Assembly: GCA_044226625.1 (NCBI GenBank)
Contig: JBGAGQ010000018.1
Span: 1 to 64,000, forward strand
Source: Thermoanaerobaculia bacterium
GTDB taxonomy: Bacteria > Acidobacteriota > Thermoanaerobaculia > Multivoradales > UBA5704
DNA length: 64,000 bases
Direction: 5' to 3'
Part shown: piece by piece, positions 55,558-60,824 of the stretch
Position numbering within the stretch: position 1 is the first letter of the stretch
Layout of the letters: each line of letters starts with the position of its first letter
The notes under the pieces: model-generated
Told to the model about the DNA's origin: nothing
Database searches by the model: none
The model's input: only the letters and a program-made list of their open reading frames with translations
Program-made: the position numbers and the translations under genes

Positions 55558-55656
55558 TTTTCATTGAGATCGCGGCGTGATGCCACGAATCGACGCGCGG
55601 AGACGGAACCCTTCGGCCGATCGCACGATGCCGCGCAGGAGCTTCGTTTCTCGTGG

Positions 55657-55873
55657 GGGAAAGCCGCTCGAAGGCCCCGGGAAGCCGCTCTCTGCGCTGG
55701 GAAGCCAATTTCTTTCGGTGGATAGCCGCTATACACGCCAGATAGCCGCTCTCTGCGCCAGGAAGTCGTTATTTTTCGGCGGATAGTCGCTTTATTCGCC
55801 TGGAAAATCGCTATCCCCGCTGGGAAGCCGCTATGCCCGCTGGGAAGCCGCTATCCGCGCTCGAATAATCGCT
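55657..55873. repeat. Eleven-copy degenerate 20-21 bp tandem array (core GGRWAGCCGCT)
   Basis: AGCCGCT-like cores at 55662, 55683, 55703, 55724, 55744, 55764, 55785, 55806, 55826, 55846, 55867. Confidence 0.8.
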
Positions 55874-56010
55874 TTTGGCCGACTACGGCGGCTAGACGGC
55901 AGGGCGCGGCCGAAAAGCGAAACCGCCCGGCGCTTCGCCACAACCGCGGCGGACAACGGCTTGCGGCGTACGCCATTGGCTGTCGCTCGATCCTTTGCGC
56001 TTTGCGGGTC

Positions 56011-56334
56011 GCCCCCCTCCTGGCCTCCCCCCGCAAGCGGAGGGAGGGACGTGCTTACCGGCGTTGGTGGGAGAGCGAGCCCCCAGCGGGTTTTCCGGAG
56101 GCGCCGTCCTTCTTCTTCCCCCCGCAAGTGGGGGGAGGGACGTGCTTACCGGCGTTGGTAGGAGAGCGAGCACCCAGCGGGTTTTCCGGAGGCGCCGTCC
56201 TTCTTCCTCCCCCCGCAAGTGGGGGGAGGGACGTGCTTACCGGCGTTGGTAGGAGAGCGAGCACCCAGCGGGTTTTCCGGAGGCGCCGTCCTTCTTCCTC
56301 CCCCGCGTGCGGGGGGAGGACCGAGGTGGGGGCG
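56011..56334. repeat. REP/BIME-like array: 91-bp unit x3 with four GC-rich hairpins
   Basis: GACGTGCTTACCGGCGTTGGT at 56048, 56139, 56230; hairpins CCCCCCGCAAGYGGGGGGAGG; ends match 16634-16957 in inverted orientation. Confidence 0.9.
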
Positions 56335-56472
56335 TCAACCGACAGCCCTGCGATGCGGCCATGGGGCCGAAGCTCGCGATAGAATCGCATCCGTTCCTCG
56401 GGAGGTCCCCTCCCAACTCCACTCGACCTTCTAGACTTCAGATTCTCGATTCGACATTCCAAAGAGGGACGC

Positions 56473-57540
<1,068 letters not shown>

Positions 57541-57633
57541 AGGGCCGGCCCCTGATGTGATTTTCGCGAACCTTGCGCCAAGCCTATCGAGAAGGCGAAA
57601 TTCTTCGCCCTCTACATCGATGGGAGATTGGCC

Positions 57634-57819
57634 ATGAAAGCGAAGCGCAACCGGAAGCTGAACTTGAGCCTCGAGACCGTTCGGCGTCTCAACGGAATCG
57701 AGATGGCGGCCGTGGCCGGTGGGGCGACGTCGAACTGCACCATGAATCCCAGGGTGTGTACGACGTCGGACCGCTGCACCGAATCCTGCGGCCCGATCTC
57801 CGTCTGCATCTGCGCCTGA
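57634..57819 (+). CDS. RiPP (lanthipeptide-like) precursor 1, 61 aa
   Basis: Leader MKAKRNRKLNLSLETVRRLNGIEMAAVAGG + core ATSNCTMNPRVCTTSDRCTESCGPISVCICA (6 Cys, 9 Ser/Thr); SD GGGAG. Confidence 0.88.
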   Translation: MKAKRNRKLNLSLETVRRLNGIEMAAVAGGATSNCTMNPRVCTTSDRCTESCGPISVCICA

Positions 57820-57829
57820 GCCGGCCGGC

Positions 57830-57857
57830 GGGATGCCGGGAGGGATCCCGGCATCCC
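57830..57857 (+). terminator. 12-bp stem-loop after precursor 1 (terminator or mRNA-stabilising hairpin)
   Basis: GGGATGCCGGGA-GGGA-TCCCGGCATCCC; no U-tract. Confidence 0.6.
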
Positions 57858-57955
57858 CATGACGAAAGCGGGGCGTGATTCGATTTCGCCGATCCTGGCG
57901 CCTATCCTTTCGAGAAGGCGAAATCCATCGCCTCCCTACGGATAGGAGTCCGTCC

Positions 57956-58144
57956 ATGAAAACGAAGCGGAGCAGGAAGCTTTCCTTGAGCGCGGAGACG
58001 GTTCGGCGCCTGACCGGGAACGACCTCGCGGCGATCGCCGGCGGCATCACCTCGGTCTGTACCGCCAACCCGAACCCCGGCTGCACCACGTCGGACCTCT
58101 GCACCGACTCCTGCGGCCCGATCTCCGTCTGCATTTGCCGGTAA
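57956..58144 (+). CDS. RiPP (lanthipeptide-like) precursor 2, 62 aa, paralog of precursor 1
   Basis: Leader MKTKRSRKLSLSAETVRRLTGNDLAAIAGG + core ITSVCTANPNPGCTTSDLCTDSCGPISVCICR; SD AGGAG. Confidence 0.88.
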   Translation: MKTKRSRKLSLSAETVRRLTGNDLAAIAGGITSVCTANPNPGCTTSDLCTDSCGPISVCICR

Positions 58145-58290
58145 GGCGTCCGAGCGGGGCGCCGGCCTCCCGGCGTCCCGTGTCACGGCGGTTCGCTCGC
58201 GGCCGCGACGGGGCGGCTCGCTTTCCTTCCCGCGGGCACCCCTTTCTGTAGGGGGCAACCGCGCCCCTCGAATCCGCGAGGAGATCCACG

Positions 58291-58500
58291 ATGAAGAAGT
58301 TGCGCCTGCACAAAGAAACCCTGCGTTCGCTCGAACGGGCCGGTCTGGCCGGGGTCGAAGGCGGCTTCTGGTCGATCCCCACCCATTGCCCGGACGACTA
58401 TCCGGACTGCTCGGTCAACGACTGGTGCCAGAGCGCCAACGGCGGCTGCACCGGTTGGCACCAGTGCCCCACCGGCGACCAGACGATCCTGGTTTGCTGA
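58291..58500 (+). CDS. RiPP (lanthipeptide-like) precursor 3, 69 aa
   Basis: Leader MKKLRLHKETLRSLERAGLAGVEGG + core FWSIPTHCPDDYPDCSVNDWCQSANGGCTGWHQCPTGDQTILVC (6 Cys, 7 Ser/Thr); SD GAGGAG. Confidence 0.85.
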   Translation: MKKLRLHKETLRSLERAGLAGVEGGFWSIPTHCPDDYPDCSVNDWCQSANGGCTGWHQCPTGDQTILVC

Positions 58501-58512
58501 GACCCCCTCCCG

Positions 58513-58543
58513 GAGGGATCGGCACCTCTCCCGCCGATCCCTC
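58513..58543 (+). terminator. 11-bp stem-loop between precursor 3 and lanC
   Basis: GAGGGATCGGC-N9-GCCGATCCCTC; no U-tract. Confidence 0.55.
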
Positions 58544-58627
58544 GAGGGTCCACCGATTCGATCGAAGGGCGACGGCGCATGGTTTCCTCTCCTCGGCGCG
58601 GAGGATGCCGAAGAAGCTCGCCGTGCG

Positions 58628-59944
58628 GTGGTCGCGATCGCCGAATCCCTCGCGCTGCGGAATACTTCCGAATCACACGAGATCGTTTCCTCGCACGATT
58701 CCGACAGGCCTTGGGGGCCCGGCTCTCTGGGCGAGGGCTGCTCCGGGATCGCCCTGTTTTTCGCCTACCTCTCGCGTGCGGCCACCGCGGTCGGCTCGAG
58801 CCCGGAGCGAGCCGCCGAGCATCGGCTCCTGGCCGAGCGATTCGCGGACCAGGGGGCCGACCGGTTGGCCGAGGGTCTGTCGGACCCCTCGCTGTATTGC
58901 GGCTTCACCGGCACGGCCTGGATGATCCGACACCTCGGAACGCTCTGGGGCGATCCGGAGGCGGCGAGCTACACGGAGGAGGTCGATGCCCTTCTCGTCG
59001 CCCTGCTCGGCACGGAAGATTGGACCGCCGAGCTCGATCTGATCACCGGGCTCGCCGGCCTGGGTACCTACGGGCTTCAGGCGATCGCGAGCGGAGGGCC
59101 GGTCGAAGATCTCGTCGCGTCCGTCGTTCGGCACCTCGACCGGAAGGCGGAGGTAAGCGCACACGGGTTCACCTGGTTTACTCCGCCCCGTCTCCTGGAT
59201 CGCGCCTCGCGAGACAACTTCCCGGAGGGGTACTACAACGTGGGCGTCGCGCACGGCGTGCCGGGCATCCTCGCGATCTTGGCCCGCGCCGCGCGGGCGG
59301 GAATCGCCGCGGAGAGGGCGGCGGCTCTCGCGGAGGGCGCTTTCGATTGGCTGATGGGGCAGCGCCTCGGTCCGGAGAGTCCCTCCGTCTTTCCGAGCTT
59401 CGTCCCTCCCGGCGGCTCCCCCTGGCCGTCTCGCCTCGCCTGGTGCTACGGCGACGCGGGCGTCGCCGCGGCTCTCTGGGGGGCGGCCGAGAGTCTCGAC
59501 GAGCCCCGAATGCGCCGCGCCGCGATCGACGTCGGGAGGCGGGCCGCGTCCCGCGATCCGGCTTCGGCATGGGTCCAAGACGGCTGCCTCTGCCATGGTG
59601 CCGCCGGCCTCGCGTTGATCTTCGACCGGCTGTTCAAGGCGACGGGGGAGGAGGTTTTCCGCGACGCCGCCGTCGCCTGGTATCGCCGGCTTTTGGGCCA
59701 GCGATCCGAGAGTGGTGTCCTCGGCGGATTCGGGTCTTGGACGTCGCTCTCGGGAGAAGAAGGTGGGTTTCGGAGAGAAGAGCGACCAGGGCTCCTCACG
59801 GGAGCGGCGGGGATCGGACTCGCCCTCCTCGCGGCGATCTCGAGCGACGCCCCGGATTGGGATCAGGCGCTCCTGATCAGCCCCGAGAGGACGCGTTCGA
59901 GCGACCGCGGTCGGACCGGTCCGGTCGAGAAGGCTGTGCTATAA
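58628..59944 (+). CDS. lanC: LanC lanthionine synthetase (cyclase); true start probably further upstream
   Basis: G..GIALF, LYCGFTG, DLITGLAG, GVAHGVPG, AWCYGDAG, LCHGAAG, GLLTGAAGIGL..WD; Zn ligands and catalytic His present. Confidence 0.92.
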   Translation: MVAIAESLALRNTSESHEIVSSHDSDRPWGPGSLGEGCSGIALFFAYLSRAATAVGSSPERAAEHRLLAERFADQGADRLAEGLSDPSLYCGFTGTAWMIRHLGTLWGDPEAASYTEEVDALLVALLGTEDWTAELDLITGLAGLGTYGLQAIASGGPVEDLVASVVRHLDRKAEVSAHGFTWFTPPRLLDRASRDNFPEGYYNVGVAHGVPGILAILARAARAGIAAERAAALAEGAFDWLMGQRLGPESPSVFPSFVPPGGSPWPSRLAWCYGDAGVAAALWGAAESLDEPRMRRAAIDVGRRAASRDPASAWVQDGCLCHGAAGLALIFDRLFKATGEEVFRDAAVAWYRRLLGQRSESGVLGGFGSWTSLSGEEGGFRREERPGLLTGAAGIGLALLAAISSDAPDWDQALLISPERTRSSDRGRTGPVEKAVL

Positions 59945-59954
59945 ATTCGGCCCC

Positions 59955-60824
59955 GTGATACGCCTTGGTGATCTCGAGCTGACCCTGGTCGGCGATGGAG
60001 AATTCCGCCTCGACGGGGGAGCCATGTTCGGGGTTGTGCCGAAGGTGCTCTGGTCGCAGATGAAGGAGCCGGACGCGGACAACCGGATCCGCATGGCGAC
60101 GAACTGCGTGCTGATCCGTCGGGGGAGCGATCTCCTCTTGATCGATAGCGGGATCGGCGACAAACACAACGCGAAATTCGGCGAGATCTACGCCATGGAG
60201 CCGCACGCCGTTCGGCTGCCAGAGTCGATCCGACGGGCCGGATACGAGCTGTCGGACGTCACCCACGTCGTGCTCTCGCACCTCCACTTCGACCATTGCG
60301 GCTGGAACACCCGGAAAAACCCCGACGGGCGGGTGGTGCCGACCTTTCCCAACGCCCGTTACTTCCTCAACCGGGGCGAGGTCGAGCACGCCCGGAACCC
60401 TTCCGAGCGCGACCGGGCGAGCTACTTTCCCGAGAATTGGGAGCCGCTCTTCGAGGCCGGTCAGGTCGAGCTGTTCGATGACGAGGTGGAGGCGATGCCC
60501 GGGGTGCGCGCGGTCAAAGCGCCGGGGCATAACGCCGACATGTGCATCGTTCTACTGGATGGCGGGGCGGACGCCTCGGGCCGACCCGAGCGCGGCGTCT
60601 TCTGGGCCGATCTGGTTCCGACGGTCGCGCACGTCCCGCTACCTTGGATCATGGGTTACGACCTCTATCCTCTGACCACCCTCGAGAACAAGAAGAAGTG
60701 GCTGCCGCGCGCCGCGGAAGAGGGCTGGCTGTCGATCTTCGAGCACGACGCCGAGTCGCCGCTCGCCCGGATCGCCTCGGATCGTCCGGGGCGCTTCCGC
60801 GTGGAGCCGCTCGCCTCCTCCTGA
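59955..60824 (+). CDS. MBL-fold metallo-hydrolase (YtnP-like)
   Basis: LDGGAMFGVVPK, IDSGIG, SHLHFDHCG, PGH, ADL, WIMGYD, FEHD. Confidence 0.9.
   Translation: MIRLGDLELTLVGDGEFRLDGGAMFGVVPKVLWSQMKEPDADNRIRMATNCVLIRRGSDLLLIDSGIGDKHNAKFGEIYAMEPHAVRLPESIRRAGYELSDVTHVVLSHLHFDHCGWNTRKNPDGRVVPTFPNARYFLNRGEVEHARNPSERDRASYFPENWEPLFEAGQVELFDDEVEAMPGVRAVKAPGHNADMCIVLLDGGADASGRPERGVFWADLVPTVAHVPLPWIMGYDLYPLTTLENKKKWLPRAAEEGWLSIFEHDAESPLARIASDRPGRFRVEPLASS

Follow-up and report, generated by a model that had tools for sequence, protein, structure and literature searches.

The three precursor genes (LanA1, LanA2 and LanA3) and the LanC gene found close together in the window, the whole 64,000-nt stretch of DNA that was analysed, were shown to form a composite of two modules and not one unit. 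LanA1 and LanA2 constitute an old orphan precursor locus that is conserved in the genus just upstream of an MBL hydrolase gene, and LanA3 and LanC constitute an accessory cassette inserted at this locus in this genome only. Both modules are likely to be parts of a class I lanthipeptide system dispersed over the genome without clustering, the chemistry and enzyme-substrate pairings of which we infer from its genes.

Organization of the Locus

All four genes are located on the + strand within 2.3 kb. The upstream flank was shown to be fbaB, encoding a class I fructose-bisphosphate aldolase (NF006707, E 4e-189), and LanC is followed by a gene for a YtnP-like MBL hydrolase and then by lpdA, in agreement with the initial annotation of this DNA. 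The annotation had also described the lack of an adjacent LanB or C39 exporter, and this holds for the whole 97.6-kb contig carrying the window (C4), on which domain-profile searches detected no LanB, no second LanC-domain protein and no C39 exporter.

LanA1 (57634..57819, + strand) encodes 61 aa, with a 30-aa leader ending in GG and a 31-aa core containing 6 Cys and 9 Ser/Thr. Its 72% identical paralog LanA2 (57956..58144, +) encodes 62 aa, its core likewise having 6 Cys and 9 Ser/Thr, and LanA3 (58291..58500, +) encodes 69 aa with a 25-aa leader and a 44-aa core of 6 Cys and 7 Ser/Thr. Exactly six Cys and seven to nine Ser/Thr had been reported for these cores, and our counts are the same; the open reading frames were likewise found intact, with a GGAG-type Shine-Dalgarno sequence upstream of each ATG. 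The earliest possible starts lie further upstream for ORF1 (57628, TTG) and ORF2 (57875, GTG), and the ATGs agree with the family alignment. The three peptides share the leader (K/R)KLxLxxET(V/L)RxL...GG; the LxLxxET...GG part had been read correctly before, and only its beginning, written as K(K/R)L, needed the trivial correction to (K/R)KL.

RNA folding predicted a 12-bp G+C-rich hairpin without a T run just 3′ of LanA1 (57830..57857, +; fold of 57815-57880, -34.8 kcal/mol, z -2.5), another 12-bp hairpin 3′ of LanA2 (58154..58181, +; z only -1.1 for the whole 121-nt stretch) and a third one between LanA3 and LanC (58505..58548, +; z -1.3, unremarkable alone). Among these hairpins 3′ of precursors just that of LanA1 exceeds shuffled sequence, and it is possibly an attenuator or a terminator. 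A promoter scan of 57400-60100 gave no sigma-70 sites, and a terminator scan gave three hits compared to 1.5 expected, which is no better than shuffles.

The LanC gene (58628..59944, +) has a GTG start and encodes a stand-alone protein of 438 aa covering positions 2-350 of the 350 in PF05147 (E 5e-43). PDB alignments to MadC (8BYK, E 2e-18), its closest solved match, and to NisC (2G02) showed that the AHG histidine, the WCYG and the CHG motifs are kept, so that both the Zn ligands (Cys, Cys, His) and the catalytic His previously described as intact are present. Besides, a protein atlas places this LanC in the ‘LanC family’. Its sole close relative was G007:C713 (54–56% identity), with which it was paired with a support of 100 in a quick tree. 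A homology search with the single window LanC protein gave no confirmed relative in the contig collection; alignment of LanB succeeded instead.

In the metatranscriptome run X6, a 233-nt contig (word depth 113.7) over 58257-58471 covered LanA3, and a 163-nt contig (depth 5) was found inside the window LanC. These contigs give a mere hint of LanA3/LanC expression, as contigs cannot rank expression and the library may hold DNA. LanA1 and LanA2 were without cover in X6, an absence that carries no weight.

Composite Origin of the Locus

A LanA1 ortholog was located directly 5′ of the MBL gene in 5/5 sister genomes examined, and a tandem pair of the LanA1/LanA2 type was also present in G002 and G007. 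Junction alignments and tblastn synteny showed that the LanA3+LanC cassette (approximately 1.75 kb; 58182..59933, +) is missing from this site in all five, and neither LanA3 nor LanC occurs within the 7–12 kb stretches compared around their LanA1-type locus. The last stretch aligning with the sister genomes before the insertion is 58154..58181, and from position 59934 onward there is a conserved box, just 5′ of the MBL start, that includes the LanC stop codon. Each of the five sister genomes carries a core LanC at another place. Among 92 genomes of the family, LanA3 was found in two, each time directly upstream of a LanC of the window-LanC clade, and in G007 this cassette is located away from the LanA1/2 pair.

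The locus had first been presented as a single unit, and this is overturned by the synteny of an orphan LanA1/LanA2 locus and a separately inserted LanA3+LanC cassette. Nor is it a rare oddity, since a precursor+LanC cassette without LanB was the commonest type of LanC context in this lineage (31/66) and about 56 such precursors are present in the genome.

A Genome-Wide Precursor Family

The genome is an uncultured Thermoanaerobaculia (Acidobacteriota) MAG assembled in 133 contigs (5.5% contamination), and scatter was judged across these contigs. Approximately 56 precursor genes with the shared leader were found on 33 of them. The leader profile picked up 53 small ORFs (E ≤ 0.01) among the six reading frames of the genome and none when the same ORFs were reversed; the leader signal is thus not due to chance. 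An SD-like tetramer precedes 48/56 of the precursor genes compared to 18% of random ATG/GTG sites, and inspection by eye of the 56 upstream regions showed no shared motif beyond the SD.

Leaders were more conserved than cores, both in mean pairwise identity (42% vs 23%, with 43 core clusters among 45) and in pN/pS (0.33 vs 0.52). Ser+Thr equalled or exceeded Cys in 56/56 cores, and the number of Cys per core was odd in 31 and even in 25. Ser/Thr occurred at -2 to -5 of 89% of the 323 Cys compared to 62% (sd 2.7) after shuffling; the strongest positional signals near Cys, at -1 (z 7.4) and -5 (z 10.6), mirror a repeated [ST]C-x3-C-like pattern and are no proof of lanthionine rings.

LanA1, LanA2 and LanA3 have the leader and the Cys/Ser/Thr-rich core of class I lanthipeptide precursors. 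They matched the class I lanthipeptide leader model NF038153 of NCBIfam with E values of 7e-4, 1.8e-3 and 3.5e-3 and scores of 19.7, 18.4 and 17.5 bits, respectively, which is below the curated cut-off of 22 bits and outside formal membership; six further paralogs encoded in the genome score above it. Membership of the window peptides in the wider leader family rests on a purpose-built profile (E 1e-9 to 3e-12). In an alignment of 17 LanA1/2 homologs, all six Cys and exactly six Ser/Thr were invariant, and the five distinct variant sites of LanA3 in public contigs were all synonymous. Searches against Pfam and NCBIfam core models gave no match of the cores to characterised families. PF28317 is annotated on a few distant homologs.

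About 52/56 precursors are without a recognisable RiPP enzyme nearby. The leader type is not confined to LanBC: a paralog on C17 is located directly 3′ of a radical SAM/SPASM gene. On C84, two precursors lie on either side of a PRMT_C-like gene, with a 2OG oxygenase nearby; a RiPP enzyme was absent from most of 12 other precursor neighbourhoods scanned. Neither YcaO nor the SPASM genes explain the family: the single YcaO gene is on a contig that carries no precursor, and just one of the four SPASM copies is near a precursor.

Dehydratase, Cyclases and Exporter Elsewhere in the Genome

Profile searches of the whole genome gave a single match each for PF04738/PF14028 and PF03412 and two for PF05147, and among these only the window LanC is on C4. 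In the sole LanB (1123 aa; contig C93), both the PF04738 domain (E 2e-171) and the PF14028 domain (E 1e-67) are complete, and MibB (5EHK) and NisB (4WD9) are among its nearest relatives with a solved structure. This LanB has no precursor of its own alongside and is 77–86% identical across all eight genomes of the genus (82–86% in six sisters and 77% in G005). No LanC was detected on its 172-kb contig in a PF05147 search. The second LanC is a genus-conserved core LanC on contig C114; both LanCs are stand-alone proteins of 432–438 aa. The sole C39-peptidase ABC exporter (787 aa; C39, ABC_membrane and ABC_tran domains) carries the Cys of the DCG motif and is located on C93, 42 kb from LanB.

A full-length LanB is thus present in the same organism, and the one lanB, the one C39 peptidase-ABC gene and the approximately 56 leader genes are what the genome search proposed in the initial annotation has yielded. 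Its suggestion of a dispersed class I system with LanB and transporter in trans fits these findings well, as both are encoded at a distance from every LanC and vary together with the leader family across relatives. LanA, LanB and LanC do not form one cluster, LanB and the LanCs being on different contigs in 8/8 genomes of the genus. All three window leaders end in GG, as expected for substrates of a PCAT with a catalytic Cys, at which cleavage is predicted.

The predicted complex of LanB(1-760) with LanA1 scored 0.52 (best of three controls 0.01), past a mark reached by 58/80 solved complexes and 2/110 mismatched pairs, in a range up to 0.60 that holds only 7 of the 80 solved complexes and both mismatches. 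At least 35% of contacts are shared among the runs, and partner pLDDT is at least 38. Passing the mark may reflect memory, because a complex of NisB with the NisA leader has already been solved, and the prediction lends weak support to recognition of the leader by LanB.

Occurrence of the System in Related Genomes

Matches to the NF038153 leader (E ≤ 0.03) were found in 23/41 genomes, with 1 to 38 in each. All 23 leader-positive genomes contain LanB, LanC and an exporter match of at least 55% identity, the match in G010 being limited to a C-terminal fragment (76% identical) at the start of a contig, and no leader matches were found in 16/16 genomes without LanB. Three within-genus contrasts (g6, g7 and g8) fit this co-occurrence of leader and LanB. 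Exceptions were G015 and G029, which have LanB and no leader matches, and G023, which has an exporter ortholog without the other parts. The 41 genomes are kin, and the counts of co-occurrence therefore overstate independence.

More distant relatives keep all four parts in ordinary LanB-LanC-LanA-exporter clusters. In G027:C7 the parts are consecutive, with six leader ORFs alongside LanB, LanC and the exporter, and G024:C142, G027:C11 and G013:C3 showed a similar organization; the exporter orthologs are located inside these LanBC clusters. The locus shows a biosynthetic gene cluster dispersing in evolution, clustered in distant relatives and scattered in this genus. Small-share holders were seen in sludge, bioreactor and biofilm metagenomes, and no habitat is named on this basis.

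Proposed Pathway and Alternative Explanations

The genes, their intactness, distribution, synteny and conservation were observed, and each chemical step and each enzyme-substrate pairing proposed here is deduced from them. The shared leader of the translated precursors would be recognised by the sole LanB, which would glutamylate and then eliminate core Ser/Thr to give Dha/Dhb, and LanC would add the six Cys thiols to Dha/Dhb, closing as many as six (methyl)lanthionine rings. For LanA3 the cyclase is most likely the adjacent LanC, with which it is constantly paired. LanA1 and LanA2 are probably cyclised by the core LanC on C114, because sister genomes without the window LanC must use theirs in this way. 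The sole C39-peptidase ABC exporter would cut after GG and export the product. One set of machinery may thereby serve all of the scattered precursors with their conserved leaders and hypervariable cores, like ProcM with the prochlorosins.

That the four genes instead form one operon, in which the adjacent LanC cyclises all three precursors after dehydration by LanB in trans, would agree with their position on one strand within 2.3 kb and with the six Cys in all three cores, and class I cyclases often accept varied substrates. We consider it unlikely, since LanA1-type genes occur at the same site without LanA3 or LanC in all five sister genomes, which hold a core LanC elsewhere, and since LanA3 goes with the window-LanC clade in two of 92 genomes, in G007 apart from the LanA1/2 pair; in addition, the genes are set apart by strong hairpins.

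Two further explanations do without LanB. The leader could be a general export or recognition tag, with most members, perhaps including LanA1 and LanA2, modified by enzymes other than LanB and LanC, e.g., radical SAM enzymes or as yet unrecognised ones. The rSAM-SPASM gene adjoining the C17 paralog, the PRMT_C-like gene and 2OG oxygenase at the C84 pair and a weak match of LanA1 to the rSAM-RiPP leader model TIGR04149 (E 3e-3) point in this direction, and [ST]C-rich patterns occur in other RiPP classes too. Such a maturase is nevertheless improbable for the family, given that three of the four SPASM genes and the single YcaO are away from precursors, that most of the 12 other neighbourhoods contain no RiPP enzyme and that LanB, LanC and the exporter track the leader family phyletically and physically in relatives. 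Still less probable is that the peptides are undehydrated, disulfide-rich secreted peptides and that LanC has a different role, e.g., thiol chemistry on another substrate or chaperone-like work; a LanC acting without LanB on disulfide-rich peptides had been raised earlier for this locus. The lack of an adjacent dehydratase and the even number of Cys (six) in all three peptides would suit this explanation, and a survey (PMC11251773) includes 197 predicted LanC-associated peptides with no dehydratase in the cluster. Against it, an intact and strongly conserved LanB without a precursor of its own beside it is present in this genome, leader matches turned up only alongside LanB in the 41 genomes, exactly six Ser/Thr are invariant along with the six Cys, and Cys counts in the family are odd about as often as even. 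With LanB at hand this explanation is unneeded, and no positive evidence for it was found.

Comparison with Known Systems

The dispersed system shares its enzyme families, and precursors consisting of a leader and a Ser/Thr/Cys-rich core, with canonical class I clusters (nisin NisABTC and the MadC and MibB systems). It differs from these in that LanB, core LanC, exporter and precursors lie apart, in the combination of a double-Gly leader and a C39 exporter, and in having additional LanC paralogs that are each linked to a precursor of their own. Prochlorosins of marine picocyanobacteria (class II), whose genes are scattered over the genome (PMC7268733, PMC11251773), show a similar organization, with one enzyme set, many scattered precursors, conserved leaders and hypervariable cores. 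Unlike in the prochlorosin system, no LanM is present, the only LanC-domain proteins being the two stand-alone LanCs; the dehydratase is of the tRNA-dependent LanB type (class I dehydratases use glutamyl-tRNA-Glu; PMC9993889), the host belongs to another phylum and has accessory cyclase cassettes, and the leaders match NF038153 and not the Nif11 type.

Class I precursors of Bacteroidetes, including the pinensin family, have LxLxKx5L leaders ending in GG, which are probably removed by a C39 protease (PMC7268733). The window peptides have the same leader architecture as these LxLxKx5L/NF038153 lant_leader_L1a precursors. They differ in their Acidobacteriota host, in scoring below the NF038153 cut-off and in being encoded by scattered genes, dozens per genome, and according to the Pfam and NCBIfam core models no characterised member of the Bacteroidetes family shares their cores. 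The LanA3+LanC cassette also resembles cases in PMC11251773 in which a short Cys-rich ORF lies beside a LanC domain with no dehydratase nearby. Those cases were left unexplained in the pertinent part of that survey, whereas here a dehydratase was found elsewhere in the same genome, co-varying with the peptides.

The term ‘undescribed system’, applied earlier to this locus, is too strong for the peptides, since the leader type has been described (PMC7268733) and NCBI labels close homologs of the window peptides ‘class I lanthipeptide’. The scattered class I architecture, prochlorosin-like and equipped with accessory cyclases in cassettes, was not encountered in print: a search of full-text literature covering the main texts of articles outside subscription journals gave no account of a dispersed class I system, nor of class I lanthipeptides from Thermoanaerobaculia. 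More tentatively, and with somewhat less than even confidence, we suggest that this lineage is a class I counterpart of the prochlorosin producers, in which one shared LanB of broad substrate tolerance, together with a core LanC and a single exporter, matures dozens of hypervariable peptides encoded throughout the genome, and small mobile cassettes of a precursor and a private cyclase add new ring topologies. The cluster would have dissolved into a regulon-like network, with the cyclase, not the dehydratase, as the unit of innovation.

Should the dispersed system operate as proposed, a single LanB has to act on dozens of unrelated cores, a tolerance known from ProcM (class II) and sought for peptide engineering, and the paired accessory cyclases would be a natural experiment in what determines ring topology. 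Mining tools for class I lanthipeptides seek LanB, LanC and LanA side by side, a rule that would miss nearly all precursors of this lineage and would misread LanA-LanC cassettes as dehydratase-free systems. The leader profile found 8,736 cluster representatives in public data, and the untapped peptide space is therefore large.

Organization of the window locus

Three small ORFs on the + strand, LanA1 (57634–57819, 61 aa), LanA2 (57956–58144, 62 aa) and LanA3 (58291–58500, 69 aa), each with a GGAG-type ribosome-binding stretch 5′ of the ATG, were found upstream of a LanC gene on the same strand (58628–59944, 438 aa). Their alignment showed a common Lys/Arg-rich N-terminus and the motif (K/R)KLxLxxET(V/L)RxL, with a GG about 12 residues after the motif, and the cores contain exactly six Cys each and 9, 9 and 7 Ser+Thr, respectively. 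All three matched NF038153, which models class I lanthipeptide leaders in NCBIfam, at 17.5–19.7 bits, which is under its 22-bit cut-off, and several close homologs bear the NCBI label "class I lanthipeptide". The LanC gene is complete (PF05147 positions 2–350 of 350, E 5e-43), and alignments with MadC (8BYK) and NisC match it at the histidine, WCYG and CHG motifs. The locus is flanked by a class I fructose-bisphosphate aldolase gene (fbaB) on the 5′ side and by a YtnP-like metallo-beta-lactamase-type (MBL) hydrolase gene and then lpdA on the 3′ side. Leader, core composition, intact LanC motifs and position were thus all as described in the initial annotation.

A scattered precursor family

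In the source genome, a MAG (6.6 Mb, 133 contigs, 97.9% complete, 5.5% contamination; window contig 97.6 kb), a leader regular expression detected 15 small ORFs, and a profile built from these and iterated once detected 53 ORFs at E ≤ 0.01 compared to 0 in the same ORFs reversed. At E ≤ 1, 58 ORFs were found; two without Cys were dropped, which left 56 on 33 contigs. Between −20 and −4, 48 of the 56 genes have an SD-like tetramer, compared to 18% of random ATG/GTG sites. The cores contain 2–10 Cys, and Ser+Thr at least equals Cys in all 56. Ser/Thr was found 2–5 residues upstream of 89% of the 323 Cys compared to 62% after shuffling, and was over-represented at −5 and −1 and under-represented at +5. 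For the 45 precursors with a full leader match, mean pairwise identity was 42% for leaders and 23% for cores; these cores fell into 43 clusters at 50% identity, LanA1/LanA2 being one of only two with several members.

Twelve other stretches (10 precursor loci, the LanB locus and the locus of a second LanC gene on contig C114) were scanned for neighbouring genes. A radical SAM/SPASM gene precedes one precursor, and in one pair the two precursors enclose a PRMT_C-like gene; no RiPP enzyme was found near the precursors in the remaining stretches. The single precursor, a 74-aa paralog with 9 Cys (contig C17, L008:4223–5983), lies directly 3′ of the radical SAM/SPASM gene, which has a PCP_red-like C-terminus, so this leader type may also serve a non-lanthipeptide maturase. 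The pair (contig C84, L012:8154–9898) lies on either side of a 399-aa PRMT_C-like-domain gene, with a 2OG-Fe(II) oxygenase gene and the gene for a 655-aa ABC ATPase near; these neighbours may be tailoring genes.

Dehydratase, exporter and co-occurrence

The genome searches proposed in the initial annotation, which had noted no dehydratase or peptidase-ABC gene beside the locus, located further leader-bearing ORFs as well as a dehydratase and an exporter on another contig (C93, 172 kb). Exactly one LanB is present, an uninterrupted 1123-aa frame with both Pfam dehydratase domains and with MibB and NisB among its nearest solved relatives. The one C39-peptidase ABC exporter (787 aa, with the DCG catalytic-Cys motif) lies 42 kb from LanB. 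Exactly two LanC-domain genes are present, that of the window and that on C114, which has a PTPS-like gene on one side and a TonB receptor gene on the other. No RiPP partner gene was found in the neighbourhoods of LanB, the C114 LanC or the exporter.

A complex prediction of LanB (residues 1–760) and LanA1, with an alignment for each, scored 0.52 compared to 0.01 for the best of three controls, with contact agreement between runs of at least 35% and a partner pLDDT of at least 38. Of 80 solved complexes 58 passed the mark used, as did 2 of 110 mismatched pairs, but the passes with a score of 0.60 or under comprised only 7 of the solved complexes and both mismatched pairs. The predicted complex weakly supports the pairing; it may reflect likeness, since NisB with its leader is a solved structure.

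In a set made up of the source genome plus 40 relatives, 23 genomes had NF038153 matches at E ≤ 0.03, 1 to 38 in each. All 23 contained LanB (E ≤ 1e-50), LanC and an exporter match of at least 55% identity (in G010 a fragment only), and none of the 16 genomes without such a LanB had a leader match. The exceptions were two genomes with LanB without leaders (G015, G029) and one with the exporter ortholog alone (G023). In each of the three genera with both states (g6, g7, g8) the parts go together; as these genomes are kin, the co-occurrence counts as a pattern rather than as a statistic. In an even phylum sample, any leader match was found in only 7 of 150 other genomes (1–6 each), so that the expansion characterizes this family and the groups nearest to it. 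One relative, G022, has 10 LanC and 12 leader matches and a LanB in several frame pieces with TGA (C3:1391948–1394854), either a pseudogene or the result of indel errors in a long-read assembly; if real, the broken LanB bears on the persistence of LanC cassettes without LanB.

Composite origin of the window locus

Seven of the 8 genus genomes carry LanA1-type genes, which are scarce beyond the genus: the count for the whole family is 8 of 92, and the eighth of these is a weak match interrupted by a stop. In all five sister genomes examined, such a gene lies directly upstream of MBL-lpdA, as a tandem pair in G002 and G007, and fbaB lies upstream in four; the G001 stretch spanned only 5.5 kb, without fbaB. 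Neither LanA3 nor LanC was found at these five loci within the stretches examined. The source genome matches its sisters as far as a hairpin after LanA2 and rejoins them at a conserved box from 59934, which includes the LanC stop codon. These breaks at both ends show the approximately 1.75 kb of LanA3 and LanC to be an insertion. Thus, the genes of the minimal locus initially annotated are present, but three precursors and LanC do not form a single unit. Of the 92 family genomes just two have LanA3, namely the source genome and G007; in G007 it lies directly upstream of the window LanC's one close relative (54–56% identity), in a setting of MFS and MacB-type transporter genes.

In 17 LanA1/LanA2 homologs (67–87% identical), all six Cys and exactly six Ser/Thr were invariant while neighbouring positions vary, and pN/pS over 36 pairs of nine orthologs was lower in the leader (0.33) than in the core (0.52). 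In public contigs, five distinct LanA3 variant sites were found, all third-position synonymous; one RNA-library contig covers most of LanA3, which is only a hint of expression.

Core and accessory cyclases

Orthologs of the C114 LanC were present in 8 of 8 genus genomes (69–86% identical) and form a tight clade of stand-alone genes. In a quick tree, the window LanC has the G007 copy as its sole partner, with a long branch and support 100. A context set was compiled from 55 stretches around strong LanC matches and the G007, C114 and window loci, excluding 2 fragments and about 14 weak matches in ~1000-aa frames (66 LanC genes, 25 genomes). In 31 of the 66 a leader ORF lies within 3 kb while LanB is absent within 7 kb; 7 had both near, 7 LanB only and 21 neither, 8 of these being the genus core LanC. 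Absence of LanB is slightly overcounted, as contig ends cut some stretches.

In relatives the parts may be clustered: the order in G027:C7 is LanB, LanC, six leader ORFs and exporter, with similar clusters in G027:C11, G024:C142, G013:C3 and G030:C127. This arrangement is the ancestral state. In a named genome collection, which overlaps our genomes in species and is not independent, 53 of 80 LanB loci had LanC in the available flank, compared to 0 of 7 at genus level (75–85% LanB identity), and in all 8 genus genomes no LanC shares a contig with LanB. In the genus member G005 the exporter is directly upstream of LanB (C448:2995–8567), an arrangement that resembles a half-way stage in the break-up of the cluster; in the source genome and G001, 42 kb of a single contig separate the two genes. 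In G024:C142 (L041, L164), a LanB frame open for ~1540–1550 aa abuts the LanC match; either a LanC-LanB fusion or simply two neighbouring frames may account for this.

Proposed maturation and relation to known systems

LanB would act in trans, dehydrating Ser/Thr in the leader-bearing precursors; LanC would form up to six thioether rings, and the exporter would cut the leader after GG and export the peptide. The constant LanA3-LanC adjacency suggests that the window LanC is LanA3's own cyclase, and LanA1/LanA2 are presumably matured by the core LanC in sister genomes without the window LanC. Cyclase-peptide pairing, LanB tolerance and ring patterns are predictions; all conclusions are based on sequence, and the genome is a MAG.

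The leader is of the LxLxK type with a GG end and a C39 protease described for Bacteroidetes class I precursors (PMC7268733). In the text seen of the two sources concerned, scattered precursors are described only for class II ProcM systems (PMC7268733, PMC11251773), and peptides beside LanC without dehydratase are counted without explanation (PMC11251773). In a full-text literature search, no description was found of scattered class I systems, accessory LanA-LanC cassettes or Thermoanaerobaculia class I lanthipeptides; the single paper found on this bacterial class reports class II and class III clusters.

Other sequence features

The LanA1 5′ region (57560–57633) is predicted to fold stably (−28.6 kcal/mol, z −3.6), contains a GGCGAA/TTCGCC palindrome and could be an operator or RNA element; LanA2 is also preceded by related sequence. 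The spacer between a beta-lactamase-like gene and fbaB (55558–56472) is 915 bp compared to ~60–80 bp in sister genomes, and contains a tandem array (56024–56319) of 3.3 copies of a 91-bp repeat. The palindromic G+C-rich core (~40 bp) of this repeat occurs more than 100 times on more than 50 contigs of the genome, often paired, and looks like a REP/MITE-like element family.
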